Positions 7,925 to 63,668 of a DNA stretch of 64,000 nucleotides are shown one piece after another (the stretch's first letter is position 1; every line of letters starts with the position of its first letter). Location of the stretch: positions 3,296,001-3,360,000 of the forward strand of contig CATQHZ020000001.1 in assembly GCA_958296135.2 (NCBI GenBank). The letters are read 5' to 3'. Position numbers and translations under genes: made by a program. The notes under the pieces were generated by a model. That model worked only from the letters and a program-made list of their open reading frames with translations. It had not been told where the DNA came from and did no database searches. Source of the stretch: an uncultured Poribacteria bacterium. Lineage in GTDB: Bacteria > Poribacteria > WGA-4E > WGA-3G.

Positions 7925-7941
7925 TTCTGCCCAGTATCGAA

Positions 7942-8030
7942 AACGTAGGCATCAACAACGTTGATGACGGATTACGTAAAAAAGTCATTGCACCAATCAT
8001 GATAAGCGAACGCATTGCGAATAACAAAAA
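7942..8030 (+). repeat. family A ~90 bp palindromic element; overlaps the start of pstB copy 2
   Basis: ACGTAGG-CATCAAC-AAC-GTTGATG-ACGGATTACG…TGCACCAA…CGAACGCATTGCGAATAACAAAAA. Confidence 0.85.
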
Positions 8031-8796: not shown

Positions 8797-8870
8797 CCTA
8801 GCGGTGGTTTGGCTGCCCTTGTGCAGAGCCGGTTGACTTAGCAGGCCATTTTGACATCGTCAAAACTTGC
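8797..8870 (+). repeat. family B repeat (CTAG…ACTTAGCAGGCC…TTGAC-nnn-GTCAA-nACTTGCA)
   Basis: Related copies at ~31885-31925, ~35862-35902, ~37850-37928 (reverse), ~57194-57225, ~59694-59737 (reverse), ~33430-33460. Confidence 0.7.
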
Positions 8871-9017
8871 ATCTTTTCGCTAACGTTCAAAAAGAGCAAC
8901 TCAGATTTGCGTAAACCTCAGTAGAACTGACGCAGAAACGAACCCAGTAGGCGCGCTTGGAAACAGCACCTACCGTTGGAGAAGAATGCATTGGCGTAAG
9001 GCCTGCTCAGAAGAAAA

Positions 9018-10417: not shown

Positions 10418-10474
10418 AGGCGCGGTTGCAAACCGCGCCTACGGGGGCCGCCGAACGCATTGCGACAAACAAAA

Positions 10475-11161
10475 ATGCTAGAAACGGAACTCAAGGTGCT
10501 TCAGCACCAACTCTTAGAAATGGCGGGAATTGCCGAACGCATGCTACATCAGGCAGTTGAATCGGTTCTCACGCGCGATGAAGTCCTCGCGCGCGCCGTT
10601 GTCGCAACAGACGATACAGTCGACTCGTTTGAAAACCAGATCGAAGCTGCCTGTATTCAACTCATCGCGCTCCACCAACCTGTGGCGTTTGAACTCCGGT
10701 TTCTGACCGCGGCGATGAAGATCTGCCGTCACATCGAACGGTTAGCCGATAAAAGCGTCTCCATCGCCAAACGGAGCCTTGAGTTATTGGCATACCCGCC
10801 TTTCCTTTCCGTAGACAGAGCGACGTTCGTCGATTTACCGTACGTCGCGCGCTTCATTCAGGAAATGGTAAAGGACGCACTAGATGCATTTGTCAATCGA
10901 AATGCGGAACTGGCGCGAGAAATCCGGGAACGCGACAGTAAAGTTGATGCCATATACGCGCGCGTCCTCCCCGAAATCCTCTCAATTTTTAGTGAGCATC
11001 CAAAGCTAATTCAGCCAGGTATCAGCATTTTGCTTCTCTTCCGGCATTTGGAGCGGGTGGGCGATTTATCGGCGAATATCGGGGAAGAGGTGTATTATCT
11101 CGTTAAAGGCGATGTGATTCGGCATCACAATGCCACGAAAAAAACACTGAAGTTTCAGTAA
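10475..11161 (+). CDS. phoU: phosphate signalling protein PhoU
   Basis: Two PhoU repeats (IALHQPVAFELR, HIERLAD, HLERVGDLSANIGE). Confidence 0.93.
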   Translation: MLETELKVLQHQLLEMAGIAERMLHQAVESVLTRDEVLARAVVATDDTVDSFENQIEAACIQLIALHQPVAFELRFLTAAMKICRHIERLADKSVSIAKRSLELLAYPPFLSVDRATFVDLPYVARFIQEMVKDALDAFVNRNAELAREIRERDSKVDAIYARVLPEILSIFSEHPKLIQPGISILLLFRHLERVGDLSANIGEEVYYLVKGDVIRHHNATKKTLKFQ

Positions 11162-11419: not shown

Positions 11420-12313
11420 GTGATGGCATCTTTTGACAGCGCATCGAAAAGACAAGTGCAAAAGAATCCCAGAGATTTCGTGGCGTTCTGTTTCAAACTG
11501 CGGAACATGGCAGACGAGGACTTCACCGACGTGGAACTCATCACGCCGGAGCAACCCACCGTTGAAATGCACCAGACAGACATCCTCATTAAGGTGAAAC
11601 TCCGAGGCAAATATGTCTTGGTGCATTTTGAGATTCAAACTACCGATAGTTTTGAAACGCCCATGGCACTCCGGATGGCAGGTTATATCCTCTGGCTAGT
11701 CAGAAAATACCGGATGGACGTTTACTCCAATGTGATTTATCTGCGTCCCGACGCCGGCCGAAACGACCCGGGGAAGTTTGAACAGAAAATACCGGGCAAT
11801 GAAATTTTGGTTGAATACCAAGTCGTTCGTCTGGCAGAACTGGACGGCCAGACGGTTCTTGACGCGAGCCCTACCGGTTTGCTACCGTTCACGCCGCTGA
11901 TGAAACCGCCTGGCGGCGTGGCTGAGGACGAATGGTTGCACCGGTGCATTGAAACGGCGGATACTGTTGATGTGCCGAACAAGCTGGATACCCTCGGGGT
12001 GATGGCTGTGTTGGGCAACTTACTCTATGACAAGAAACACATTTTGGATATCGTAAGGAGGATAACCATGAACGCAGCACCTATCGTCCAATACTTCGGG
12101 GAGCAGGCCGCAGCGGAAGCACGACGAGAAAACTCGCGTGAACACATCCTAGAAGTATTGGAACTTCGGTTGCACCCGGACATAGCGCGCGATTTTCAAC
12201 CAACGATAGAGGCAATTGACGACTTGCAACGCCTCAAGCAGTTGCATCGTGCCGCAATACGGGCAAACTCCATCGAAGACTTCCGGCGAGCTTTAGACGC
12301 AGATGGAAAATGA
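11420..12313 (+). CDS. Rpn/YhgA-like PD-(D/E)XK nuclease (recombination-promoting nuclease / putative transposase family)
   Basis: TDILI…LVHFEIQT…MALRMAGY nuclease motif; LLPFTPLM; C-terminal IDDLQRLKQLHRAA helical domain. Confidence 0.8.
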   Translation: MMASFDSASKRQVQKNPRDFVAFCFKLRNMADEDFTDVELITPEQPTVEMHQTDILIKVKLRGKYVLVHFEIQTTDSFETPMALRMAGYILWLVRKYRMDVYSNVIYLRPDAGRNDPGKFEQKIPGNEILVEYQVVRLAELDGQTVLDASPTGLLPFTPLMKPPGGVAEDEWLHRCIETADTVDVPNKLDTLGVMAVLGNLLYDKKHILDIVRRITMNAAPIVQYFGEQAAAEARRENSREHILEVLELRLHPDIARDFQPTIEAIDDLQRLKQLHRAAIRANSIEDFRRALDADGK

Positions 12314-12371
12314 GTCACCAAGGGCGCGGTTCATAACCGCGCTGACTCGTCTTTACCAACGGAGACTAACC

Positions 12372-12617
12372 ATGAACGCAGCACCTATCGTCCAATACTT
12401 CGGGGAGCAGGCCGCAGCGGAAGCACGACGAGAAAACTCGCGTGAACACATCCTAGAAGTATTGGAACTTCAGTTGCATCCAGACATAGCGCGCGATTTT
12501 CAACCAGCACTGGAGGCAATTGACGACTTGCAACGCCTCAAGCAGTTGCATCGTGCCGCAATACGGGCAAACTCCGTCGAAGACTTCCAGAAAGTTTTGG
12601 ACGCAAACGGAACATAA
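12372..12617 (+). CDS. stand-alone duplicate of the Rpn C-terminal domain (81 aa)
   Basis: 12367-12588 is a near-identical copy of 12063-12284; own GGAG RBS and ATG. Confidence 0.75.
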   Translation: MNAAPIVQYFGEQAAAEARRENSREHILEVLELQLHPDIARDFQPALEAIDDLQRLKQLHRAAIRANSVEDFQKVLDANGT

Positions 12618-12678
12618 ATCGCAAACGGCGAAGCAGGCAGGACACCGTGCCCTGCCTGCTTTTTGCCGCACTACGCCT

Positions 12679-30848: not shown

Positions 30849-31820
30849 CTATGAAATATCAAGAGCGTGCCGGAGTGTCGTGAGACACGGTTTCACGTCT
30901 GTCCACTTTTCAAAGGCGATGGCCCCTTGATGGATGAGCATTCCGATGCCGCCGAGCGTTTTGCAACCGCGTTCGGCTGCGGCGCGCATCAGCGGCGTGA
31001 CAGGTGGCGTATAGACGATGTCATAAACGAAGGTGTGAGGCAGCAACGCATCGATGTCAATGAGCAGCGGTGCATCTGCTTCCATGCTAGACGTTGCCGT
31101 ATTAACGAGAAGCGTGCTATTGCACACTGCCTCGTCGATGCGCGTATCGGTAAGCCCCATCCCTAACATGACAACCCCAGTCTTCTCCTGCATCTCTTCA
31201 GCTAAAGCGCCGGCTTTCGCCGCGGTCCGGTTTGCGATGACGATACGCGTCGCGCCCGCAAGCGCGAGCGCGACGACGACAGCCCGAGCGGCACCGCCCG
31301 CTCCCAACACGACAACATTTTGTATGTCGCAATGCGTTCGGTTAGAGGTTCCACAGCCAAAACGTCTTCTTCCCGGGTCTGCTTGCGAGGTTGTTGCAAG
31401 TTCGGTTTCGGTGTCGCCTGTTGCTTCGCGCAACGCCCGCAGAAATCCTTCCGCATCCGTGTTATCGCCGTGAATCTCTCCCTCGCGAAAGCTGAGCGTG
31501 TTGACAGCACCGATGAGTGCCGCTTCCCGTGAAATTGAAGTTAAATGCGGGAGAACAGCCTGCTTATGCGGAAGTGTGACGTTGATACCGACGATGTTCA
31601 ATGCCTTGAAGCCTTCCAGCGCGTGCGCAATGTCGCCGGGCCGAACGTGGAAAGGCACGTAGACGTAGTCCAGTCCAGCTTTCGCGAGGGCCGCGTTGTG
31701 CATTTGCGGCGAACGGCTGTGCTCAACCGGTGCGCCAATCACACCGAGAATGCGGGTATGTCCAGTAATCCTTTTCGTTGTTCGCAATGTGTTCGGATAC
31801 GTGTGTTGGGGGTATGACAT
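30849..31820 (-). CDS. aroE: shikimate dehydrogenase with repeat-derived N-terminus and internal insert
   Basis: HSRSPQMHN, GINVTLPHK, GAVNT, NTDAEG, LGAGGAARA, NRT, GMLIHQG. Confidence 0.95.
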   Translation of the reverse strand: MSYPQHTYPNTLRTTKRITGHTRILGVIGAPVEHSRSPQMHNAALAKAGLDYVYVPFHVRPGDIAHALEGFKALNIVGINVTLPHKQAVLPHLTSISREAALIGAVNTLSFREGEIHGDNTDAEGFLRALREATGDTETELATTSQADPGRRRFGCGTSNRTHCDIQNVVVLGAGGAARAVVVALALAGATRIVIANRTAAKAGALAEEMQEKTGVVMLGMGLTDTRIDEAVCNSTLLVNTATSSMEADAPLLIDIDALLPHTFVYDIVYTPPVTPLMRAAAERGCKTLGGIGMLIHQGAIAFEKWTDVKPCLTTLRHALDIS

Positions 31821-31865
31821 GGCTTTACGTCATCTGTCATCGACGTTGTCAATGACTCCGTTCCT
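31771..31865 (-). repeat. family A element overlapping the aroE start
   Basis: GTCATTGAC-AAC-GTCGATGAC…CCGAACACATTGCGAACAACGAAAAG on the minus strand. Confidence 0.85.
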
Positions 31866-31934
31866 GGTGCTTTAGTTAACATTGGGGTTGACTTAGCAGG
31901 CCGCCTTGCCGTTGTCAAGACTGACGTTCCTTGG

Positions 31935-34900
31935 CTAAGTTTTTCTCAAAAGCATTTCAATCTGCTCTTTCGCCTGTTCCATCGTCGGATAGCGAATTTC
32001 ACGGTAGCCACGCACTGTCTCCGCCGCTTCAATAGCACGGACGTGGTTTTCGTAACTTTCCGCATCAGTTGGAGCGAAGGTATCAATCACGCGCGCGAGA
32101 TACCAGTCTCGGAACGCTTTCTCCTTCGCGTGCCACCGCGAGAGCCATCGCCGGAGGAACTTCATCCGCTTCATGAGATTGAGCTGCCAATTCCGCGTGT
32201 CAATATCTGCCTCAAAGTCCATCCCCATCACGTTGAAACGAGGACGATTGAGGTGGACGTAGTGTATTCTATCGCCGTTTGCCTCGTCAACTTTATAGCG
32301 TCGCTTATCGCGTAGGAGTTTTTCCTCACTCGTTAACAAGTGCGCGACGTAGACTTCGTCTTTAATCAGCATCACTTTATGGAGCGCGGGCATCGCCGCT
32401 TTCGTGGCGCGATACCCCTCAGCTTCCGAATCACGCGCGTGAATGTGCAACACCTTTTCAACGTATTGGCGAGCGTAGGCGATGTCTTCAAACTGCACTA
32501 TATCGTAAATATGGAGGGCCAGCGTCCGATGCGTGTTGTCGTCCATGTCCAGCGTCGCTACGGTGCTTTCAACGAGCGACTGATAGGCGTGTGCCAACTG
32601 TTTGCCGCGCCGTTTCTTCGCCAAAATTTCGCGCTTTGCCGCAAGTATTTCGTCGTGGCACGAGGCGTTCGGATGCGCGGGGGGTTGTAATAACCCGCGT
32701 TGACGTAATCCATCTTCGCCGTTGGCGAAGCCTACGTTTATAGTGCTATTTTCTACAGCAAGCCGCCGCCCGGCGTTGAAAGCCTTCAGGTTTGTCTCTA
32801 AATCCGCAGGGCGCACCATTTGCTTAAGCGCGAGGTGAATGGGTTCTAATTCCAGCGGTATCAGTCCACGTTGGAAGGCGGTACCGAGCAGCATCATATT
32901 CGCATAGACTTTGTTGCCGAACATTTGTTCAGAAATAGCAAACAGATCTGCGCCGAAGTAAGCATCCGCATCCGTGCTGGCGTGGAGTGCGGTCTCCAAA
33001 GCGGCGACATCAAACGCCTCCTTGCCGATGAGCGTCGACATCGTCTCCGTTTTGGCGGTATTCACAACGGCGGCGGTGCGCGCCGGAGATGCAACACGAA
33101 AAAGAGAATTCGCATTGATACCGCGCACCGCCTCTAAAATGTCAAGCCCTAACACCAGATCTGCCTTGCCGTAGGCGATGATAGGCGCGACAGAAACACC
33201 GGGGTGGCTATAGGTGACGTGCGAGTAGACACCGCCGTTGCGAATTGCTAAGCCTTTCCTATCACAGAAGGTGACATCGTAGCCTTGCAGATGCCCAGCA
33301 ACAACGAGAATTTTGGAGATAGTGCCAATACCCATGCCGCCGACACCTGCCGCATAAGCATGCCACGTTTTTTGTCCTGGCGCAAAGCGTGGTTTGCCCC
33401 CTTCTGGGGTGGGCAACGTTGTCTCATTAGACAGAAAAGACGTTGTCTTTTCTTGCATGTCTGTCCAAGGGAGGGATGCTACCTTGCGGGGCGGACGTTT
33501 GCGAGTAACGATAACCTCTTCAAAAGAAGGGCACGCGGATTTAATGCGCGCGCACGCGCCATCGGTGACACACGTGGACATGTCAATCCCGATTTTATCG
33601 CCGTAGTCGGTAGGAATAATCTTTAACGCCGGACATCCCGTCGATTTCGTGCATTCAAGGCAGAACTCGCAGACCTCGGGGGTGATATTAATGTGTCTTT
33701 CCCGCGCAAGAAACCCGTCCTCGGCTAGCGTCTTTTGTTCTTCGCGCCGCAGGCGGCGCTGATAGGTAATCGCGCACTCCTTATCGGCGATGACAATCTT
33801 GACACCGGGTTTAAGTATCGTTTTCTCGAGATATTTTTTGTAAGTACCCCGGTCTTCGGGGTTCGTACGGACGATGTCTATTTCGGAGTCACCGGCAAGG
33901 CCTTGCGCCACTTTCTCAATGTCTTGCGCGAATGTCGGATTACCGAGGATATCGATGTCGCCAGCCGGTGTCGGTTGGTGGCCCGTCATGGCCGTTGTCT
34001 GATTGTCCAAGATAATATAGGCGATGTCCTGATTGTTTTTTATCGAATCGGAGATGGCCGCCATGCCACCGTGAAAAAAGGTGGAATCACCCATGAAGAC
34101 AACTTGTTTGTTTTGAATGAACGCGTCAATGCCTGCGCCAGCGGCACCACCGAGTGCCATTGCAGAGAGGTTGTGCATCAAGCGCGGAAAGGGTTCATAT
34201 TTGAGCATCGAATAGCAGCCGATATCACCGTGAAAAACCAGATCGACCGGGGACGACTTGTGATGTTTTTTCATGTAAGCAGCATCCATAAACTGCTCCG
34301 TGATTTGGAGGAGGACGCTGGACGAATCGCGATGCGGGCACCCGGGGCAAAACGTTGGTGTGCGCTGCGGCATGTCAAACTGCTGTTCGGATACCTGCTT
34401 TTGCAGTGCTGCTTCGCGGTTAAATATTTGTGTCTTGGCGCGAAGTTTCTCGTATTGGCGCAAGGCGTTCGATGTGCAGTTTTGGTGCACGATGATTTCG
34501 CTGCGTAATGTGTCCTCGGCACTGTCAATAACTCCGTTGCTGGTGCGAAGTTTTTCGTCGGCTTTGGCAGCGAAGTGCTTGAAGAGGGGCACAAGCCGTT
34601 GGATGAGGAGGGAGGTATCTAACCCGGCCTCGGAAGGCAGCCCTGGCAACCCCTCCGGGAACTGCTTTCCCCACACCTGCACACGCCGTGTGAGTTCGCT
34701 GTTCTGATACAGCTGCGTCAGGCATGCCTTGAGTTCATTTTCAAGCAGAGAACGTTTCTCTTCCACAACGTAGCAGGCCTCAACCTGCTCGGCAAATTCT
34801 CGCACGATGTCGGTGTCAAGCGGATGCGTCATACCGAGTTTAAGGATAGGCATGTCTCCCAGAACGTTCAATTCGCCGAGAGCATGCTGCAAATAACTAT

Positions 34901-35786
34901 ACGCGAAACCGGCGGTAATGAACCCGAAGGCATATTTTTCGTCTGGGCGCGAAGCGTTCGGTTGGCGTTGCCTCGGCAGGCCAACTCCTACTACGTCTCG
35001 GCTAACGCGGGGCATCCCTTGGCTAAGTGCTCCTGAGTCTGGCCACTGAATCTGATTTAGCTTCAGGGCGCGGGCGGTTTCAAGTGCCTGAGGCAGTCGT
35101 TCCTCCAAAGTTTCCCGCTCAATACGCGCCGTATCCGGCGGTAAGACGACGCGCCGTGAGGCATCAATCAAGCCGGTATCCAAGAGGGTGGGGTTCTGCT
35201 GGTTTATCGTAGGATAGACATTCGGGTGCAGTTCAACGTTTCCGCCGCCATCCGCCTGATTCTGTGTGGCGAGAAGCACGACATAGAGGTTCGCCGCTTT
35301 GGATATCTGAAAGGCGATGTCCACCCAATCTTTGAGTTCCTGAAAGGTGCCGGGCTCCACCAAGGGCGTGTAGAGATGCCGTGCAAGGAACCGAGAATCG
35401 GCTGGCACCTGCGTGCTATGTCCCCACGTGTCATCCCCAACAACAACAACAGCACCGCCAATGGTACCAGCGAGATTGCTGATGGCGAGCGCATCGGCAG
35501 CGACATGCAAACCGACGCTTTTCATGAACGCAATCGCACGCACTTCTGCCATTTGGGAGCCGTTTAACCGGGCAATGCTCAACGCCTCGTTATTGGCTAT
35601 TTGCGCGACAATACCGTTTTCTTTGAAGAGCGCGGCGTTACGCTGGATGACATCAAACACCTCGGCGAGAGGGGAACCGGGGTAGCCGGTGAGGAGACTC
35701 ACACCGCTCTCCAACGCGCCTTTGACGAGCAGTTCGCAGCCAGTATAGACATTTGTGCCGTGAGCTTGTGTAAATCTTTTGTCCAT
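31935..35786 (-). CDS. indolepyruvate:ferredoxin oxidoreductase family, fused alpha/beta, with four repeat inserts
   Basis: GYPGSP, FCPGCPH, GDIGC, MGDSTFFH…DNQTTAMTG (TPP binding), CEFCLEC…GCP, GVGGMG, KDEVYVAHL; AAGGAG RBS before ATG 35786. Confidence 0.9.
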   Translation of the reverse strand: MDKRFTQAHGTNVYTGCELLVKGALESGVSLLTGYPGSPLAEVFDVIQRNAALFKENGIVAQIANNEALSIARLNGSQMAEVRAIAFMKSVGLHVAADALAISNLAGTIGGAVVVVGDDTWGHSTQVPADSRFLARHLYTPLVEPGTFQELKDWVDIAFQISKAANLYVVLLATQNQADGGGNVELHPNVYPTINQQNPTLLDTGLIDASRRVVLPPDTARIERETLEERLPQALETARALKLNQIQWPDSGALSQGMPRVSRDVVGVGLPRQRQPNASRPDEKYAFGFITAGFAYSYLQHALGELNVLGDMPILKLGMTHPLDTDIVREFAEQVEACYVVEEKRSLLENELKACLTQLYQNSELTRRVQVWGKQFPEGLPGLPSEAGLDTSLLIQRLVPLFKHFAAKADEKLRTSNGVIDSAEDTLRSEIIVHQNCTSNALRQYEKLRAKTQIFNREAALQKQVSEQQFDMPQRTPTFCPGCPHRDSSSVLLQITEQFMDAAYMKKHHKSSPVDLVFHGDIGCYSMLKYEPFPRLMHNLSAMALGGAAGAGIDAFIQNKQVVFMGDSTFFHGGMAAISDSIKNNQDIAYIILDNQTTAMTGHQPTPAGDIDILGNPTFAQDIEKVAQGLAGDSEIDIVRTNPEDRGTYKKYLEKTILKPGVKIVIADKECAITYQRRLRREEQKTLAEDGFLARERHINITPEVCEFCLECTKSTGCPALKIIPTDYGDKIGIDMSTCVTDGACARIKSACPSFEEVIVTRKRPPRKVASLPWTDMQEKTTSFLSNETTLPTPEGGKPRFAPGQKTWHAYAAGVGGMGIGTISKILVVAGHLQGYDVTFCDRKGLAIRNGGVYSHVTYSHPGVSVAPIIAYGKADLVLGLDILEAVRGINANSLFRVASPARTAAVVNTAKTETMSTLIGKEAFDVAALETALHASTDADAYFGADLFAISEQMFGNKVYANMMLLGTAFQRGLIPLELEPIHLALKQMVRPADLETNLKAFNAGRRLAVENSTINVGFANGEDGLRQRGLLQPPAHPNASCHDEILAAKREILAKKRRGKQLAHAYQSLVESTVATLDMDDNTHRTLALHIYDIVQFEDIAYARQYVEKVLHIHARDSEAEGYRATKAAMPALHKVMLIKDEVYVAHLLTSEEKLLRDKRRYKVDEANGDRIHYVHLNRPRFNVMGMDFEADIDTRNWQLNLMKRMKFLRRWLSRWHAKEKAFRDWYLARVIDTFAPTDAESYENHVRAIEAAETVRGYREIRYPTMEQAKEQIEMLLRKT

Positions 35787-35935
35787 TGTGTTATTTAACT
35801 GCTCCTTTACAGGCGCGTTCAAGTCTGGCAGGAGAACCTACAAACCTTGTCTTTCCTGTAGGCTAGCGGGGTTGTCTTAGCAGTCCATCTTGAGGTTGTC
35901 AGTTGGGCTCAGGCGAGCCCCTATACGTGCTTTTG

Positions 35936-37747
35936 CTATTCTCCTAACCTCTCGCGCGCGTGTGCGAGGCCGATTTCAGTTTCTTCCCCGCCGTGCATTC
36001 GCACAATTTCGCTGACGCGTTCTTCGGGTGTCAGCGGTTTCGCTGTAATGAGCGTCCGGTCTCCGATAACCTTCTTCTCCACCCGAAAATGTTTATCGGC
36101 AAACCGGGCTATCTGGGGGAGGTGTGTGATGCAGATAACTTGTGAAAATTCTGCGAGTTGCTTCAATTTTTTTCCAACGACACTGGCGACTTTGCCGCCG
36201 ATACCGCTATCAATCTCATCAAAAATGAGCGTGGGAATATCGTCCACTTGAACAAGCACCGTTTTGAGCGCGAGCATGATGCGCGAGATTTCGCCGCCCG
36301 AGGCAATCTTTGCAATAGGACGCGGCTCCGAACCGACGTTGGGCGCAATTAAAAATTCTACGGCATCGATGCCATCCGGTCCGAAAGCGTATCGTTTCTC
36401 GTCAATTTGAAGCGCGTTTTTTCTCGTGCGCCAGGCGTTTGATAAGGGTTGTGAGTGCAAGCGTAACCCGTCATCGACATTGTCGATAACTACGTTTTCG
36501 TCTTCGTTTTCGTCTTCGTTTTCGTCTTCCTTGGGGTGAACAGCGACAATGAATCTTGCGTTGTCCATCCCCAGTGTCCGCAATTCCCGTTCAATCAGGA
36601 CAGAGAGTCGTTTTGCAACCTGTTTCCGTTTGGCGGAGAGCGCGGTACACAGCTGCTGCGCCTCCTGCGTCACCTCGTCAATTTGCGCGTTCAGTTTCTC
36701 AATCCTTTCGGTACCGAAGTGTAACGCCTGGAGTTGCCGCGACGCATCGGCATGGTATGCCAGTATCTCTTCAATAGTGTTGCCGTAGCGTCGCCTGAGT
36801 TTTGAGAGGAGTTCCAAGCGTTCGGTGACTTCGGCGAGGCGCATCGGATTGAACTCCACCCCCGCCGCATACTGGCGGAGGTGCGCGGCGATATCCTCTA
36901 TTTCATACAGCGATGAATCCAACCGTTCATGAACGTCGGACAGACTTGCGTCCATCTCACACAACTTGCCGAGAGATTTGGAGACAGTTTTCAGCAGTTC
37001 CAACACAGCCCTCTCTGACGCGTCCCGCGTGCGCCTACCGCTTTCCAGCTGGGCATAGACGCGGTTTGCGGTATCAAACAGCGTCTCGGCGTTGCTAAGC
37101 ACCCGTGCTTCAGCCGCGAGTGCTTCATCTTCGCCTTCGACAAGGTTCGCCGCCGCCAATTCGTCACACTCAAATTCAAGGCGTTCCTTCTCACGTTCGG
37201 ATGCTTGCACTGCCTGCGTCACCTGCGTTACCTCGTTTAGCAATTTTTGACGGTGCTGATAGAGCTTGCCAACCTGTTTTCGCATTTCACTGCAATCGCC
37301 AAAGTCATCTAGGAGTTTGACATGCGTTTCAGTCCGGAACAACGACTGGTGCTCATGCTGCCCGTGGATATCAACGAGCAAGGTGCCGAGTGCCTGCAGT
37401 TGTCTTAAATTCGCCATCTGCCCATTGAGATGGCATCGGCTCCGTCCGTTCGCGTTTATCTGTCGGGTGAGAATAGCGGTATCGTCAGCATCTAACACGG
37501 CGGCGGCAGATGCCGCCCAGAAAGGATGCTGTGGCGATGGCGCGACACCCACCTCCACTTTCGCCGCGGCTGTCCCTTCCCGAACAATATCGGCAGTGGC
37601 GCGCTCGCCTAACACGAGGCCTACTGATTTGAGGATGACAGACTTGCCGGCACCCGTTTCCCCGGTGAAGATATTCAACCCCGGCGCGAACTCTAACTCT
37701 AGTTCATCAATGAGGGCAATATTGCGAATAGAAAGGGCTTCTATCAT
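35936..37747 (-). CDS. recN: DNA repair protein RecN with in-frame repeat insert
   Basis: GETGAGKS, IHGQHE, ASGGEISR, IFDEIDSG, CITHLPQIA. Confidence 0.96.
   Translation of the reverse strand: MIEALSIRNIALIDELELEFAPGLNIFTGETGAGKSVILKSVGLVLGERATADIVREGTAAAKVEVGVAPSPQHPFWAASAAAVLDADDTAILTRQINANGRSRCHLNGQMANLRQLQALGTLLVDIHGQHEHQSLFRTETHVKLLDDFGDCSEMRKQVGKLYQHRQKLLNEVTQVTQAVQASEREKERLEFECDELAAANLVEGEDEALAAEARVLSNAETLFDTANRVYAQLESGRRTRDASERAVLELLKTVSKSLGKLCEMDASLSDVHERLDSSLYEIEDIAAHLRQYAAGVEFNPMRLAEVTERLELLSKLRRRYGNTIEEILAYHADASRQLQALHFGTERIEKLNAQIDEVTQEAQQLCTALSAKRKQVAKRLSVLIERELRTLGMDNARFIVAVHPKEDENEDENEDENVVIDNVDDGLRLHSQPLSNAWRTRKNALQIDEKRYAFGPDGIDAVEFLIAPNVGSEPRPIAKIASGGEISRIMLALKTVLVQVDDIPTLIFDEIDSGIGGKVASVVGKKLKQLAEFSQVICITHLPQIARFADKHFRVEKKVIGDRTLITAKPLTPEERVSEIVRMHGGEETEIGLAHARERLGE
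36417..36529 (-). repeat. family A element in frame in recN, preceded by a 12 bp x3 repeat (EDEN)
   Basis: Encodes EDENEDENEDENVVIDNVDDGLRLHSQPLSNAWRTRK. Confidence 0.9.
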
Positions 37748-37923
37748 TTCTTCTGTAATGGCGCAGAGCCTTTTGTATTGGCGCAAAGCGTTCGGCAAAA
37801 CCGGTGCGGCAGGTTAACTAGCAGCCGCACTGCGGGCATCCTCGGCGAAGGTATGCAAGTCTTGACACCGTCACGACGGCCCGCTCAGTGGAGACATCTC
37901 TCCAAGAGAACGTGAAACTACCG

Positions 37924-38814
37924 CTAGGAACGACAAACTTTCCTCTTGATGTTTTCGCCTAACATGAGTTTCTCACGCAGGGCCCTGTAATAGTTATGCC
38001 GCCGTGAACGGATGAGCTGAATGGTGCGTTCCGCCTTGCGAACGTTAATCACTGCCTCCGCTCCAAGGCTATGCGTCTCCCGTTGTCCATCAACGAAGAC
38101 ATCAACGCTCTCGTAAGCAGAACGCATCTTGACAGTAATCTCCGCGTCGCCATGCGCGATGAAGGGCCGCACGGTGAGACTATGTGGCGCGATAGGTGTC
38201 AACAACATCGCCTCCAACTGCGGCGCGACAATCGTCCCCGCGCACGAGAGGGAATAGCCGGTGGAACCACTCGGTGTCGCGATGATGAGTCCATCAGCGG
38301 TATACGGAATAAACAGTTGGCCATCAATATAGGCATCTAATTCAATGAGCCGTGTGTAGTGACGGATGACAACATCGTTGAGTGCGAACGCCCGAAACGT
38401 GCTATTGACAACTACCTCTAACATCATTCGGTGCTCAACACGATAGTCACCTTGCAGCGTTGCCTCCAACGTTGGATAGAGTTCTGTCAGCGAAGCGTCC
38501 GTCAAGAAACCGAGGGTGCCGATATTGATGGCGAGGAGCGGCACGTTTTCAATCCCCGGCGTGTGCGCCGCGCTGAGCAGCGTCCCATCGCCCCCCAGGA
38601 CGAGCAGCATGTCCGCTGCACGCACGATGTCTGTTGTCTGCATGCCTATCTTCGGACACCCCAATGCGGCTGCAGGCTCATCCGCTATGAGCGGCGTAAC
38701 ACCTCGCCGATGCAGCCACTCGGATACTTCTGCGACAATATCGGCGGCGTTCACTTTAGAGGTGTTGACAAAAAAGCCGATCTTTTGTAGTGGAGCAAAG
38801 CGTTCAGAGGACAT
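37924..38814 (-). CDS. nadK: NAD+ kinase
   Basis: GGDGT, GTLGFL, LNDVV, DGLIIATPSGSTGYSLS; adjacent to recN. Confidence 0.95.
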   Translation of the reverse strand: MSSERFAPLQKIGFFVNTSKVNAADIVAEVSEWLHRRGVTPLIADEPAAALGCPKIGMQTTDIVRAADMLLVLGGDGTLLSAAHTPGIENVPLLAINIGTLGFLTDASLTELYPTLEATLQGDYRVEHRMMLEVVVNSTFRAFALNDVVIRHYTRLIELDAYIDGQLFIPYTADGLIIATPSGSTGYSLSCAGTIVAPQLEAMLLTPIAPHSLTVRPFIAHGDAEITVKMRSAYESVDVFVDGQRETHSLGAEAVINVRKAERTIQLIRSRRHNYYRALREKLMLGENIKRKVCRS

Positions 38815-39115
38815 TTCTCGTCTTTCACCTCTCTTCACCAATGCCGTCATCGACGTTGACGTTTTTGTCGTTCGCAAGGCGTTCGGCGGACGTTTCTGCT
38901 AGTTTCACGTCGCTCTACCAATGCCGTCATCGACGTTGACGTTTTTTGTCGTTCGCAAGGCGTTCGGCGGACGTTTCTGATGGTTTCACGTCGCTCTACC
39001 TGTGCCGTCATCGACGTTGACGTTTTTTGTCGTTCGCAAGGCGTTCGGCGGACGTTTCTGATGGTTTCACGTCGCTCTACCTGTGCCGTCATCGACGTTG
39101 TCGATGACTACGTTT
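38783..39115 (-). repeat. tandem array of family A-like units (80-81 bp period; three near-identical plus one degenerate)
   Basis: GCCGTCATCGACGTTG at 38843, 38923, 39004 and 39085. Confidence 0.92.
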
Positions 39116-40211
39116 TCGTTGAAGAACTCTTTGCGGAACGCCTCTCGACATACGAAAAACAGAGAATCACGCCGCAGCCTCCTAAAAACAGCATCAACGT
39201 GATAAATAGGTTCGCATCCAGCTGCGGGAGGATGTGCGCGGTATCCACCCGTTCGCCATCAACCATCACAAATTCGCGAAACGGCCACAAACCGTAAAGC
39301 GAACCTACCATCAAACCTATCAGAAAGGCAACGGTGAGGTTACGGTAACGGTGTAGCAGATAGTTCAGCAGCCGCGTAAATGCCACCAGTCCAAACAGAC
39401 ATCCGAGCGCGAAGGCAGCGAGCGTGAGTAAATCTTCCCACATCGCCGAATTCGGCATCTGCCGCGTGGCGAGGATTTCGGATGCGCCTGTCATCACCCC
39501 GTTAATCGCGGTGAGTAGCGGAAAATAGACACCGAACGCGAGCATCAGAAATGAGCCGCTGATGCCGGGCAGTATCATTGCAGAAATCGCCAGCGCGCCG
39601 CACCCAAACATCTTCGTCGTTCGCAACGCGTTCGACAAGGGTTGTTGGTGCAGTGACACCTCTCTGCGTAAGCCGTCATCGACGTTGTCAATGACTACGC
39701 TCTCTGTTGCTGCGGTTTCACCACCTGTCCCCAGAGAGATGCCGACTATCAGCACCACCGCCATGAGTAACACAACCAGTTCCTTGCCCCCAAACCCTTT
39801 GAGCATTCGTGCCGGTATTGCGATAGATATCAAAATGAGCCCGCTAAAGAAGCCATACGTTGCATCGTGGTGGACATTCAGCAGATAGACTATCAGTTTT
39901 GAGGTAAGCAACACCGCTGCAACCGCGCCTACGCCTAAGAAGGCGAGGAAACCCACATCCGCGCGGCGCAGTTCCGCTAGTGCATCCGCGCAGGCACTTT
40001 TTTTGAAGGAGAGCACACGAAGCACCTTTTTGACAGTAGTTAGTCGAATGTTCTGCAGTGCAGCGATGAGCCGTTCATAAATCCCTAAGACGAGAGCCAG
40101 CGTGCCGCCGCTCATACCGGGAATGATGTTCGCAACACCGATGAGGAAGCCGTTGACAAGATTTCGTATTGGTGCCAAGCGTTCGTCTCTGTTTTTCTGA
40201 TGCTTTGACAT
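39108..40211 (-). CDS. DUF368 family membrane protein with in-frame repeat insert
   Basis: IIPGMSGGTLA, GIYERLI, AMILPGISGS, GLMVGSL..LWPF. Confidence 0.9.
   Translation of the reverse strand: MSKHQKNRDERLAPIRNLVNGFLIGVANIIPGMSGGTLALVLGIYERLIAALQNIRLTTVKKVLRVLSFKKSACADALAELRRADVGFLAFLGVGAVAAVLLTSKLIVYLLNVHHDATYGFFSGLILISIAIPARMLKGFGGKELVVLLMAVVLIVGISLGTGGETAATESVVIDNVDDGLRREVSLHQQPLSNALRTTKMFGCGALAISAMILPGISGSFLMLAFGVYFPLLTAINGVMTGASEILATRQMPNSAMWEDLLTLAAFALGCLFGLVAFTRLLNYLLHRYRNLTVAFLIGLMVGSLYGLWPFREFVMVDGERVDTAHILPQLDANLFITLMLFLGGCGVILCFSYVERRSAKSSSTKT
39611..39700 (-). repeat. family A element in frame in the DUF368 gene
   Basis: Encodes SVVIDNVDDGLRREVSLHQQPLSNALRTTK. Confidence 0.92.
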
Positions 40212-40268
40212 CTCTCTGCCCTAGCCCTCATCAAAAAATTATCGGTTCCCTGCCCAGAGAAAGTTAAC

Positions 40269-40928
40269 TCACCGAAAGGAACGACAGAATAATTGTGTAA
40301 AAAGCCGTATCTCGCGCAGCGGTTTGATGTCGCTTCGGTAATCGCCGTAGCAGGCTGCAATCGGTAAACTCTCTATCCGCAACCCGCGCCGCCCGGCTTT
40401 AATCAGCAGTTCTGACTCTGTCTCATACCGCTCTGTCTCAAGTTGTATCTGCGCTAAGACTGTGGCGCGAATAAGCCGATACCCAGACTGAAAATCTGGC
40501 ACTGTTTGCCCACATAACTTTGAACCGACAAACGAAATGAGCGCGTTATTGACGCGCCGATGCAGCGGCATCGTTTCTCGCGCCCTGACGCGCGCGCCGA
40601 TGAGGATATCAGGCTGTGTGCGCGTAAAATGTGCCAGAAAGCGAGGGATATCCGCTGGGGCGTGCTGTCCATCGCTATCCATGGTGAAAACTGCATCGTA
40701 GCCGCTAGCAAGCGCGTACGCGAAGCCTTTGCGGAGCGCGAACCCCTTGCCGCGATTCGGTGTATGCGCTAAACAGACTGCCCCGCTGTCCACCGCAATC
40801 TCGCCTGTCCTATCCAGAGAGCCATCGTCAATCACGACGATATCGCTGATGTAGGCAGCCGCCTCCTGAATAACCTGTCCTATCTGTTGTGATTCGTTGT
40901 AGGCCGGCAGAAGCAGGCAGATTTTCAT
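40269..40928 (-). CDS. glycosyltransferase family 2 (polyprenol-phosphate glycosyltransferase-like)
   Basis: PAYNE, IDDGSLD, NRGKG, MDSDGQH, DFQSGYR. Confidence 0.9.
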   Translation of the reverse strand: MKICLLLPAYNESQQIGQVIQEAAAYISDIVVIDDGSLDRTGEIAVDSGAVCLAHTPNRGKGFALRKGFAYALASGYDAVFTMDSDGQHAPADIPRFLAHFTRTQPDILIGARVRARETMPLHRRVNNALISFVGSKLCGQTVPDFQSGYRLIRATVLAQIQLETERYETESELLIKAGRRGLRIESLPIAACYGDYRSDIKPLREIRLFTQLFCRSFR

Positions 40929-41097
40929 CTCTTCGTCGTTCGCGAGGCGTAACCCTGTATCGCCGATGTTGGCCCACGAACGTGACATGGGGTTACGCTT
41001 TGCGCGCTACAGGAAACGCCCTATCCCGAAACTGTTTTTAAATTATACCACACGCCCGGATTTATGTCAACAAAATCTGATAAATGTGATACACTTT

Positions 41098-41192
41098 CCT
41101 TCGTTGTTCGCAAGGCGTTCGGTTAAGTTTGTTGGGGCACTAACGTCTGCTTGCATAACCTGTCATCGACGCTGTCGATGACTACGTTCCTG
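41098..41192 (-). repeat. intergenic family A element
   Basis: ACGTAGTCATCGACAGCGTCGATGAC…CCGAACGCCTTGCGAACAACGAAG on the minus strand. Confidence 0.88.
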
Positions 41193-41310
41193 GTGCTATT
41201 TTTTCTCTTGACAATTGTTGCAGTAACGAACGTGGTTTGAGAAAGTGACGCGATATCCTCAATTCACCGTTCTCTCCTGCAATCCTACAAAAAAATTGAA
41301 AGGTTCAAAC

Positions 41311-43254: not shown

Positions 43255-43582
43255 CCCGCGCCATGATAGAAGGCACAAAGCGATAGCGAGGGACAGTGGA
43301 CATCTCTGCAGCGAGACTGCAGAGATGACAAAGTTAAAGGTAGCGTGTTTACGCGGGGCGACACACGCACATTTTCTGTAGACGTGACCGTGTTTACGCG
43401 GGGCGACACACGCACATTTTCTGTAGACGTGACCGTGTTTACGCGGGGCGACACACGCACGTTTGCTGTAGACGTGACCGTGTTTACGCGGGGCGACACA
43501 CGCACATTTTCTGTAGGCGTGACCGTAACGGCCCTCGCGCTACGGTTAAGGGGACCCCGCGCCATGATAGAAGGCACAAAGC
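43255..43582. repeat. composite repeat: 27 bp direct repeats flanking a split family F REP that contains four 45 bp tandem units
   Basis: CCCGCGCCATGATAGAAGGCACAAAGC at 43255 and 43556; 45 bp units start at 43345, 43390, 43435 and 43480. Confidence 0.9.
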
Positions 43583-52103: not shown

Positions 52104-52474
52104 TTGACGCGTTCTCCTCCTATTTTCTTGTGGAAATTATAGCAAACATTGCACGGAAAGTCAAGTTTTTGTATTGGCGCAAAGCGTTTGATAACGTCTT
52201 CCTCGTAATCACATCTCTCCGTAACTCCGCAGGGTTACGCCGCTTGAAAACGTGCCTGCGTCGCCTCGCGTAAGCGGGCCACCTTGTTGTTGCATGCTGT
52301 GCTCCTGCGGCTCAGTTTTTATCGGCTCAAAAAATTTGCGTTAAATTTCCGATGCTGCTATACTATTTCATAACGAGAATCAACGCAACCCGCGTAGGGC
52401 GAGGGAAAACCCGGCGAGCGCGAATCGCCGAGGGTTCCCCTCGCCATCGTTCAATAAAAAAAGAGGAACATTGC

Positions 52475-53469: not shown

Positions 53470-53625
53470 AACGTAGGCATCAACGATAGGCACGCCTATC
53501 AAGACAGGCGAGATGCCAAATTTAGCATCGAAAACGTCGTCTTCGCCAACAACGAAGAGGGCTTACGCCGAGACACGTTATGGCACCAACCCACACCTCC
53601 GAACGCCTTGCGAACAACGAAAAAC
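53470..53625 (+). repeat. family A element (with an upstream partial copy) overlapping the methyltransferase start
   Basis: GTCTTCGCCAACAACGAAGAGGGCTTACG…GGCACCAA…CCGAACGCCTTGCGAACAACGAAAAA. Confidence 0.8.
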
Positions 53626-55008: not shown

Positions 55009-55037
55009 ATTTTCTCCATAACCAAGGTGAAATCACC

Positions 55038-55883
55038 ATGTCCGTTAACCGAACACATTACGCCAGACAAAAAATTTTAGTTTTCGGCGCGCATCCCGAT
55101 GATTGCGACATGCAAGCGGGAGGTGTCGCCGCCCTATATACCCAACAGGGACATTGCGTGAAATTTGTCTCTGTGACTAACGGCGATGCCGGCCATCATG
55201 AAATGGGTGGCGGCACCTTGGCGCGCCGCAGGGCCGCCGAAGCACAAGCCGCCGCCGCAACCATCGGCATTGAATATGAACTGTTTGATAACCACGATGG
55301 CGAACTCTTGCCGACGTTAGAGAACCGCTATCAAATCATTCGCACCATTCGCGAGTTTCAGCCAGCGCTAATTATGACACACCGACCGAACGATTACCAT
55401 CCAGACCATCGGTATACGTCGATGTTGGTGCAGGACGCGGCGTATATGGTAACGGTGCCGAACATTTGCGCGCTCACGCCGCACCTACAGAAGAATCCAG
55501 TCATTGTTTACCTGAACGACAGGTTCTTGAAACCCTATCCGTTCACGCCGGATGTCGCTGTCGGCATTGATGCCGTGGTAGAGCAGAAAATCGACATGCT
55601 ACATTGCCATACCTCGCAACTCTACGAATGGCTGCCCTACAATAGCGGGACTTTAGCCGATGTCCCCGCGGGGGAAACAGCACGACGCGCATGGCTAGCG
55701 CAGCGGTTACTGACTCGATTCCACAGCATCGCTGAAAAGCACCGCGCGCTATTAGTCTCCCTCTACGGAGAAAAAGTTGGAAATGAAATCCAATACGCCG
55801 AAGTGTTTGAGGGGTGCGAATACGGGTCTCCGCTCACAGCAGAGAATATCCCAACGCTCTTCCCCTTTTTTTCTAACTCCTAA
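55038..55883 (+). CDS. PIG-L family deacetylase
   Basis: GAHPDD, TNGDAG, DYHPDH. Confidence 0.9.
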   Translation: MSVNRTHYARQKILVFGAHPDDCDMQAGGVAALYTQQGHCVKFVSVTNGDAGHHEMGGGTLARRRAAEAQAAAATIGIEYELFDNHDGELLPTLENRYQIIRTIREFQPALIMTHRPNDYHPDHRYTSMLVQDAAYMVTVPNICALTPHLQKNPVIVYLNDRFLKPYPFTPDVAVGIDAVVEQKIDMLHCHTSQLYEWLPYNSGTLADVPAGETARRAWLAQRLLTRFHSIAEKHRALLVSLYGEKVGNEIQYAEVFEGCEYGSPLTAENIPTLFPFFSNS

Positions 55884-57131: not shown

Positions 57132-57267
57132 ATTTTTCGGAGTAGCGCAAAGCGTTCGGCGAACATCTCTGGTGTAAGAACAGTGAACTTCCCAGGCCGA
57201 CTTGACGTTGTCAAGTCTTGCATTTCTTTCTAACATCGTGAAAATCTGTATCGCGCAGCCGCTGATA

Positions 57268-59472: not shown

Positions 59473-59798
59473 TAAAGTTCACCTTTTCTAAACATAGGTG
59501 AGGGACAGTGTCCTGCGCTGCAGGGGCACGTCTCTGGGGCAGACACCGAGTCGCGGTTTTCCTGAATCGATGCCCACTGTCCCGCAGAGATGCACGCGAA
59601 ACAGCGGAACTACCCTCGTCCTAGTTTCGTGGGAATTTCTCTCCTTTTTCACTTCAGGCGAAGGACAGGCCCTCGTCCTACGTCAAACCAGAACTGCAAG
59701 GATTTGACAACGTCAATGCGGCCTGATAAGACAACCTCTCAGGATACTGGTAACTAAACAGTGCCCCGCGAACAACAAATTACGCTGCAGCGTCACTG

Positions 59799-62664: not shown

Positions 62665-63540
62665 TTACCAAAACGTTCCGAGATAAATCGCCCCAAGCCC
62701 GATAAATATGTCCCACTTCATCCAGCGTTGAATGAAGGCGCAGTTTTCCTTAGCGGCATCTCTCCACAACCGAATGCCCAAGTAGAGGATAACCAGATCT
62801 ACGCCGAGCACAACAACCACTAAATAGATGCCTGAATACCACCCGAATAGGTACGGGATAGGACTCAACAAGATGACTACGGCTAAGCAGACTAACGCGA
62901 TTTTCACGGCGAGTCGCGGGTTGAGAATCGCCAGCGTCTTAACACCGTTTTTCAAGTCGCCCTCCGTGTCCTCGAGGTCTTTCACAATTTCGCGCGGCAA
63001 TGTGAACAAGAACGCGAACATTGCAGGAACAAGCGTGCCTGCCACCGATTCTATCGCTACGCCGCCGGCAATGAAGGTTAACCCTGTCAATCCGCTGACA
63101 ACTAGATTGCCAATGAACGGCGTGCGTTTCAGCCAGAGCGCGTAGGTGAAAACGGCGATGGAGACGAGCATCGCGATGCCGAGTGCGTAAACGTTGATGC
63201 ACGCGCCAAGCCCGATGCCAAGAGCGATGAGGCATATCGCAAAAATCAGCGCGGCGCGCCTGCGAATGCGCCCGGAAGGGAGCGGCCGCTGGGCCCTGTT
63301 GATGCAATCGATGTCGTAATCACAGTAATCGTTTATCGCGTTTCCAGCGGAGAGCAAGACAAGTGCCGAGACAGAGACAAGCCAGATTCGGATATCAATG
63401 AGGTTCTCCCACCTGTCTGCGCTAGCAAACATGCCACCGAGCCACGCGGAAACAAAAGCGATGACACCATTCAGTGGGCGCGCCAACTCAACATAATTTT
63501 TCGTCTGTCGCAATGCGTTCGATAAAGTAGATTGGTGCAA
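62665..63540 (-). CDS. UbiA prenyltransferase, digeranylgeranylglyceryl phosphate synthase (DGGGPS)-like
   Basis: ELARP.N, GNAINDYCDYDIDCINRAQRPLPSG, LKRTPFIGN, REIVKDLEDTEGD, MKW. Confidence 0.82.
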   Translation of the reverse strand: MHQSTLSNALRQTKNYVELARPLNGVIAFVSAWLGGMFASADRWENLIDIRIWLVSVSALVLLSAGNAINDYCDYDIDCINRAQRPLPSGRIRRRAALIFAICLIALGIGLGACINVYALGIAMLVSIAVFTYALWLKRTPFIGNLVVSGLTGLTFIAGGVAIESVAGTLVPAMFAFLFTLPREIVKDLEDTEGDLKNGVKTLAILNPRLAVKIALVCLAVVILLSPIPYLFGWYSGIYLVVVVLGVDLVILYLGIRLWRDAAKENCAFIQRWMKWDIFIGLGAIYLGTFW

Positions 63541-63638
63541 TCACATGTTCCTGCGTAAACCGTCATTACGGTGCCGGTCAAACTGCCGATGCAGCTCGCC
63601 TCTCTTGAGAGGCGTAACGGTGTCAATGACTACGTTCT
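63497..63638 (-). repeat. family A element with an insertion in its hairpin loop; supplies the TTG start of the UbiA gene
   Basis: ACGTAGTCATTGAC[insert]GTAATGACGGTTTACG…TTGCACCAA…TCGAACGCATTGCGACAGACGAAAAA. Confidence 0.8.
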
Positions 63639-63668
63639 TGATGCTACGGACAGCTCCTCGCGCGCCGC

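Follow-up and report, generated by a model that had tools for sequence, protein, structure and literature searches.

A short polar repeat, found in 64,000 nucleotides of DNA from an uncultured Poribacteria bacterium (assembly GCA_958296135.2, contig CATQHZ020000001.1, positions 3,296,001 to 3,360,000; hereafter the window), adds in-frame residues to conserved proteins such as RecN, and lies mostly between genes, where its 3′ end often coincides with a start or stop codon. A first-pass annotation, made from the letters of the window alone, had described the copies within genes and overlooked this main behavior, which concerns 182 of the 219 clusters of copies in the genome. Its proposal of a lineage-specific, nonautonomous repeat that adds residues at tolerant loops is supported by the comparison of orthologs, and neither the window (Rfam, gathering score) nor the peptide (Pfam) matches a described family. 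The element is very probably selfish and tolerated by its host. On balance, we favor the view that it is polar and nonautonomous, that it is moved by a HUH-type enzyme, and that its pattern of occurrence is set by selection.

Anatomy and distribution of the repeat

An nhmmer profile seeded on nine copies of the window gave 226 matches in the genome to which the window belongs (G000) and none in the reversed genome. With separate models for the two halves and an E threshold of 1, the 3′ modules number 261 and the 5′ modules 158, with none in the control. The genome holds 219 clusters, 37 inside called genes and 182 outside, genes being called with a purpose-written caller whose start positions are approximate. 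Near-full copies, of which there are 123 in G000, show an element of about 95–110 bp made of two modules joined by a spacer. The 5′ module has an A-rich AACG word, the tag GTAG, and a stem of 8–9 bp closed by an AAC loop, and the 3′ module has a short conserved core, GAACGC-N-T-N-GCG, with an A-run behind it. The spacer, ∼35 nt long, is fixed in length and variable in sequence, its match to the consensus being about 55%, against ∼95% for the 3′ core in old copies. The four letters of the tag are present in 102, 93, 113, and 100 of the 123 copies, respectively. The stem covaries (34 double-change cells, a number reached in 0 of 500 shuffles), and base-pair covariation is limited to these 9 bp, with no pairing from end to end. 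Because G.T and A.C mismatches are about equally frequent in the stem (54 and 51), with no bias toward the RNA strand, the structure seems to be one of DNA rather than of RNA. Lone 3′ modules (144) are more numerous than lone 5′ modules (43), and no pair of lone 5′ and lone 3′ modules encloses a single candidate gene.

The copies of G000 are old, with a median nearest-neighbor identity of 0.77. Two relatives, G001 and G002, were used for comparison. In G001, 167 matches within 342 kb picked for high density have an identity of 0.90; they keep 8.66 of 9 stem pairs intact in spite of many different stem sequences, TAG is highly conserved, and the expansion in this genome is young. The row for G002 in this comparison, out of register by one base, was left out. 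Inverted pairs make up 24 of its 96 clusters. A covariance model, by which 37 candidates were scored per genome, identified the element in 38 of 101 genomes of the phylum, namely in G000, in G002, and, by genus, in 31/32 of g5, 2/30 of g2, 1/1 of g3, and 2/4 of g8. In G001, 150/150 candidates matched, and there were no matches in G005, G007, G009, and G016. The copies of g5 have a different stem, and their 3′ core is often inverted. The exact hairpin pattern occurs at 10 loci among species genomes, all in Candidatus Poribacteria records, and has 0 exact matches in viral contigs; judging from these sequences, the element appears to be confined to Poribacteria. A profile of the peptide, compared with 1.84 billion representatives, gave 12 matches, by eye 7 short peptide-bearing open reading frames and 5 chance repeats, and these say little on host range. 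Strand counts in the two replichores (50/25 and 36/29) track gene skew and give no clear signal of replichore bias. Three contigs of G000, C2 (36.8% GC), C3 (67.0%), and C4 (60.3%), to be compared with 54.4% in C1, have no copies of the element and are possibly plasmid, phage, or contamination.

Copies within proteins and at gene boundaries

Intragenic clusters are nearly always in the sense orientation of the host gene, 34 of 37 in G000 (P 1e-7) with 3 antisense, and 10/10 in G001. There are 23 intragenic copies outside the window, 20 of which were scanned for the family of the host. The hosts include an EF-G paralogue, SMC, L-rhamnose isomerase, HisH, PdxJ, GcvP, a MetH/MTHFR fusion, BamA-like and PorU-like proteins, a histidine kinase, and several proteins without a family. 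The family model runs through the insert, with 26–33 residues in surplus, in SMC, the isomerase, HisH, and the MTHFR fusion.

New sites are occupied lineage by lineage, and the host usually loses between a few and some tens of bases. In the comparison with G002, which covered 1.2 Mb (about a fifth of that genome) and 38 mapped sites, 9 of 15 intragenic G000 sites have no same-orientation element, and all 12 sites with an open coding frame in G002 are also open in G000. Reciprocally, 31 of the 41 mapped sites of G001 are empty in G000, 11 of those being inside genes. Net length gains at filled sites are usually smaller than the element; host bases have therefore been lost at or after insertion. 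The recN genes of G001 and G002 lack the insert at the DNA level, and the protein match with relatives breaks at residues 428–460; in G000 a 12-nt host word occurs in two additional copies ahead of the insert, for a net gain of 33 codons over both relatives. The insert of EF-G is common to all three genomes of the genus and is present in 0 of the 25 others shown. This EF-G gene (G000:C1:105298-107538) is one of three paralogues, and in other genera Lys-rich sequence has independently extended the linker that bears the insert. For RecN, the copy of the fused indolepyruvate ferredoxin oxidoreductase (IOR) at 34449, and aroE, orthologs without the repeat are also without the peptide, as one would expect if the inserts are lineage-specific.

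Structural models of RecN and DUF368 place the inserts in low-confidence loops, in agreement with a position in tolerant loops. In RecN, the segment 416–441 is the only one with a predicted local distance difference test (pLDDT) score under 50 and lies between two strands; in DUF368 the insert falls between helices, in a region of low confidence whose length varies among relatives. Gaps or divergence of the other rows at these places would by themselves lower the confidence to some extent. The catalytic motifs of the hosts were said to be intact, and motifs were indeed found: RecN has the Walker A and Walker B motifs, the Q-loop, the signature, and the H-loop, and IOR has CPGCPH, GDSTF, and CxxCxxC. 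Sequences resembling classic GTAG-tagged repetitive extragenic palindromes (REPs) are apparently in frame in G000:C1 near 27003, 29881, 2314591, and 2896574, in loops that are filled by the element in G001; several repeat families seem to alternate at tolerant loops.

The inserts do not write one and the same peptide, as had been proposed, since copies are only 24–79% identical to the peptide of DUF368. The idea of a single frame holds for the hairpin half, for which 20/20 scored copies use the frame that reads NVVID, but not for the 3′ half, which uses three frames (16, 11, and 5 of 35 matches, with 3 unscored). Among 99 nongenic copies, the NVVID frame is open in 54 and the other two sense frames in 14 and 13; hence, the single frame of the hairpin half reflects the stops that the other two usually hold. 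Stops do not explain the strand bias, because antisense frames are open more often than sense ones (89/99 versus 67/99). The sense peptide has a hydropathy of −0.84 and the antisense peptide of +0.44, and the antisense reading ends in the hairpin followed by a T-run. Mismatch rates at the three codon positions of 19 intragenic copies are 0.12, 0.20, and 0.20, with no third-position excess, and this lack of a codon-position signal suggests that the peptide is tolerated rather than functional. The orthologous N-termini of aroE are in different frames in G000 and G002.

Outside genes, where 164 copies were scored, the A-run of the element is no more than 8 nt from a called start in 36 (control 4.9%) and equally close to a stop on the opposite strand in 17 (control 1.9%), the remaining 111, including copies that overlap a called start, being at neither boundary. 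Among the 36 start-adjacent copies, 17 give the A of the ATG and 15 lie two bases on. Only 12/113 of the 5′ ends are near a boundary, and a cruder boundary test gives 65/168 where about 39 are expected. Most nongenic clusters (136/182) face a downstream sense gene, and only 5/182 are found in convergent gaps, for about 16 expected. At nadK and DUF368, the native start of relatives has been lost, and the element gives the called start. In G069 and G073, 19/39 motif matches abut an ATG. An ATGA overlap of g5, between genes that we read as pyrC and carA, was compared in 25 genomes: it is empty in 7 and has a +121-bp insertion at the A of ATG in 5; of the other genomes, 6 carry a longer version, 4 a partial one, and 3 a different sequence. 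At loci of G069 and G073 there is a back-to-back doublet with outward A-runs, one at the downstream ATG and the other at the upstream stop, and G073 has a 245-bp composite at a TAA-ATG junction that is empty in G069.

Kinship with other repeats and possible modes of mobility

The element acts like a Rickettsia palindromic element (RPE) inside genes and like a mycobacterial interspersed repetitive unit (MIRU) at starts; the comparisons that follow draw on parts of the cited papers. RPEs are repeats of 100–150 bp fused in frame into unrelated conserved proteins, with about neutral effect, as in the gmk example, and one orthologous site may hold different or degenerate inserts (PMC10969869, PMC2229807, PMC3767692). 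They form long stem-loops with terminal inverted repeats (PMC2229807), and RPE-4 and RPE-6 are CGTC-tagged (PMC3733652). The analogy with RPEs made in the first-pass annotation is apt for the in-frame fusion into unrelated conserved proteins but not for the stem-loop shape of the whole element, which lacks terminal inverted repeats, has its sole hairpin (9 bp) at the 5′ side, and is GTAG-tagged and polar; moreover, 37 of its 219 clusters are intragenic versus nearly half of the RPEs. RPE-1 to RPE-10 were compared with it by description. MIRUs are short mobile repeats that insert at start codons, with a small reading frame coupled to the host gene (PMC12548453). The element shares with them insertion at start codons, tandem arrays, and one ATGA-overlap insertion, but its junctions also include opposite-strand stops, it replaces native N-termini, and it has many internal in-frame copies.

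The GTAG tag ahead of a short, perfectly paired stem and its small loop recalls the group 3 REPs of the REP-Sm type, in which GTAG directly precedes an 8-bp perfect stem with a 3-nt loop (PMC8266576). Contrary to REPs, the hairpin is joined at a fixed distance to an unrelated conserved 3′ module and not to a second REP, and convergent gaps, which REPs favor, are avoided; whereas group 3 REPs are found mainly after genes, in co-directional or convergent gaps and often as inverted dimers, the element mostly faces a downstream gene. It also differs from REPtrons, as no gene for a REP-associated tyrosine transposase (RAYT) flanked by the element was found among the Y1 loci scanned. Intragenic GTAG REPs coding 20–30 residues, often in repair genes and at N-termini, have been described (PMC3733652), so the phenomenon of intragenic repeats is already known. 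SRMs are abundant short DNA hairpins of the CGTC type that flank the small GIY-YIG gene of the Ssn nuclease (PMC11893778); the element is likewise an abundant short DNA hairpin, but of the GTAG type, and no copies of it flank the small GIY-YIG gene in G000. Unlike miniature inverted-repeat transposable elements, it has no terminal inverted repeat and no excess of target-site duplications. A literature search, the scope of which stopped short of Additional file 3 of PMC3733652 and of the Poribacteria genome papers, found no description of the element.

In the scheme that we favor, the element would move as single-stranded DNA, mobilized in trans by a HUH Y1 enzyme of the group 3 RAYT type that reads the GTAG hairpin, and purifying selection would set the pattern of placement. 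Of the sense frames of the hairpin half, usually only one lacks stops. The sense peptide is hydrophilic and would be tolerated, its translation giving a passive loop; the reading in antisense is hydrophobic, and its hairpin and T-run may act as a terminator. Single-strand mobilization by a HUH enzyme is favored because of the geometry shared with group 3 REP-Sm and of the RAYT-like genes in several carriers (G000, G002, G069, G072, and G073). Chances are about even that the mobilizing enzyme is of the RAYT type: the geometry fits the link already suggested in the first-pass annotation, but no Y1 gene flanked by the repeat was found at the loci scanned, and the link stays conjectural.

Several observations weigh against this scheme. 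None of the 62 Y1 loci examined, a sample of all such loci, is flanked by the element, and both RAYT genes of G000 are flanked by other REP arrays. There is no Y1 match in G001 (86% complete), the genome with the youngest copies. The bases at the 3′ junction show no CT signature of the kind expected from TnpA-REP, which cuts at CT or CA, the next base being T in 93, C in 68, G in 33, and A in 2 cases, and precise 3′ junctions at start or stop codons are usually not a property of REPs, to judge from part of one source (PMC3733652). Finally, the conservation of the 3′ core while the spacer drifts could mean a function for the host. At a distance of about 1.6 kb from an IS200-like gene, there is one match of the element (E 0.012). 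The RAYT-like genes of G000 (C1:3733800-3735300 and 4790600-4792100) each lie between arrays of other GTAG REP families, the first one also between two copies of a promoter-like block, and G005 has 34 Y1 transposase matches though it is without the element. Among other candidate movers, a tyrosine recombinase has no support, being found in G069 alone among 5 genomes, and neither has a small GIY-YIG gene of the Ssn type at the one locus viewed, that of G000, which lacks flanking copies. PF00589 has no match in G000, G001, G002, and G005, with 14/14 control genomes positive, and XerC/D may be missing or very divergent in these four genomes.

Spread may also have required no dedicated transposase, if recombination or gene conversion, acting between gene boundaries and loops already filled with repeats, propagated and rewrote the copies, and templates were switched at palindromes. 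Orthologous sites often have different subtypes or lengths yet the same 3′ junction, other GTAG-type repeats often occupy, in G000, the loops that the element fills in G001, inversions of the loop and of the 3′ core are found, and a cognate enzyme was not found at the Y1 loci scanned. However, there are clean gains at repeat-free sites, in RecN and at the ATGA overlap of g5 (the +121-bp insertion, with 5 filled and 7 empty genomes of 25), and these speak against conversion, which needs prior homology, so that we consider this route doubtful. Still unlikelier is a domesticated cis element, selected by the host as a portable leader for translation initiation, coupling, or termination, or as a protein-binding site, with intragenic copies as by-products. 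The frequency of A-runs near starts (36/164) and opposite stops (17/164) above controls, the called starts given to nadK, DUF368, aroE, and pstB, the conserved 3′ core next to a drifting spacer, and the 19/39 matches abutting ATG in G069 and G073 would all fit such a role, but sites are gained and lost between sister genomes, the element was not found in most g2 and g4 genomes, stem mismatches have no strand bias, and orthologous copies switch frame.

A SINE-like (short interspersed nuclear element) retrotransposition, by target-primed insertion of RNA, would explain the precise, A-rich 3′ end, the variable 5′ truncation, and the sense bias, and is consistent with the 144 lone 3′ modules versus 43 lone 5′ ones, with tandem units that restart within the hairpin, and with the 17-nt direct repeat around one copy of IOR. 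It is nevertheless very improbable: 6 genomes gave no RVT_1 match while the control was positive, target duplications in 112 copies are no commoner than in shuffled pairs, left and right junction bases are uncorrelated, and deletion of the hairpin between internal AACG words accounts for the lone 3′ modules. We give hardly any credit to removal of the insert from RNA, or its skipping by the ribosome, which would leave a normal host protein; a hairpin is present, but all 12 sites open in G002 are open in G000 and 20/20 hairpin halves are in the stop-free frame, and removal would make the frame irrelevant. As a variant on the role of the 3′ module, some enzyme reading it might direct integration to the A of ATG or to just after stops, thereby swapping the ribosome site and the first codons; the element would then provide the leader and N-terminus of hundreds of genes in some Poribacteria, in addition to loop peptides of housekeeping proteins, which we regard as rather doubtful.

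Copies in the window and implications

The copies of the window and their host genes are collected in Table 1. All the copies listed in the first-pass annotation were recovered at their positions, and the four peptides in RecN, IOR (two), and DUF368 read in frame as reported. The copy at 57135 is a full degenerate one rather than a 3′ half, and the one at 63497 is full but interrupted, as its loop carries a 48-nt insert (63568-63616), comparable to loop inserts in g5 copies. The list lacked the entries at 31318-31398, ∼33370-33390, 34936-34978, 38783-39117, 40162-40233, and 55025-55074. The concern that inserts could be assembly artifacts is answered by four sequencing runs (X1–X4) of one sample, possibly the source sample: in the assemblies of X1 and X2, one contig spans 30800-38866 and another 39071-41300 with 0 differences, and X3 and X4 differ from the window by 1-base insertions only. 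Joints with sides of 20–33 nt inside repeat copies were interpreted as cross-mapping.

Table 1. Copies of the element and their host genes in the 64-kb window
Feature	Position	Strand	Remarks
Full copy at pstB 5′ end	7939..8030	+	ATG at 7999 inside; G002 has 3′ part only
3′ half	10445..10476	+	final A doubles as first base of called phoU ATG (10475)
Truncated copy (5′) inside aroE, in frame	31318..31398	-	residue about 141; empty in G002; different frame
Full copy at aroE 5′ end	31772..31865	-	internal ATG at 31820 opens the aroE frame
Sister variant of 5′ hairpin module	31886..31938	-	without 3′ module
Host gene IOR	31935..35786	-	family matches below cut-offs
IOR full copy, in frame	32648..32740	-	residue about 1017; replaces a length-variable loop
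IOR weak 3′ remnant	33370..33390	-	E 0.019; G002 has two tandem in-frame copies in this loop
IOR full copy, in frame	34449..34541	-	residue about 417; empty in G002; 17-nt direct repeat on flanks imperfect
IOR 3′ half, in frame	34936..34978	-	residue about 273
Host gene recN	35936..37747	-	TIGR00634, 542.6 bits, cut-off 407.85
RecN full copy, in frame	36417..36499	-	residues about 418-444
3′ half just upstream of recN start	37771..37800	-	
Tandem array, one full and three 5′-truncated copies	38783..39117	-	80-81-nt units; last unit supplies called nadK start (38814), replacing native ribosome site and ATG
Host gene DUF368, undecaprenyl-phosphate translocase-like	39108..40211	-	PF04018, E 2.4e-61
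DUF368 full copy, in frame	39612..39702	-	residue about 171; low-confidence inter-helix region; degenerate copy at this site in G002
Truncated copy (5′) giving called DUF368 start codon (40211)	40162..40233	-	takes the place of the native first 7 codons found in relatives
Full intergenic copy	41100..41191	-	
3′ half, intergenic	52166..52221	-	
Full copy at methyltransferase gene	53530..53624	+	supplies called start (53580) and first 15 codons
3′ half at a gene's 5′ end	55025..55074	+	
Degenerate full copy	57134..57226	-	A-run stops one base before called prmA ATG (57131)
Full copy with 48-nt hairpin-loop insert	63497..63639	-	overlaps 5′ end of a UbiA-family gene

The sister variant of the 5′ hairpin also occurs at 57182-57234, 8831-8883, 59705-59736, and 35870-35901; its stem includes TTGACA, it is often without the 3′ module, and it may be a portable promoter. 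The window further contains a 45-nt tandem array (43299-43568) and a 270-nt direct repeat (12057-12630; 91% identical, 304-nt spacing).

With dozens of independent in-frame inserts, the element offers a natural experiment on selfish DNA that makes new protein sequence, in hosts that include RecN, SMC, an EF-G paralogue, HisH, PdxJ, GcvP, and AroE, and with filled and empty alleles across many genomes. The expansion of G001, being young, with a GTAG hairpin that is clear and 3′ junctions that are precise, opens the enzyme and the target rule to test, and the sense-only bias in spite of open antisense frames provides a test of hydrophilicity versus transcription termination as the filter. In practice, the calls of start codons change for many genes of Poribacteria.

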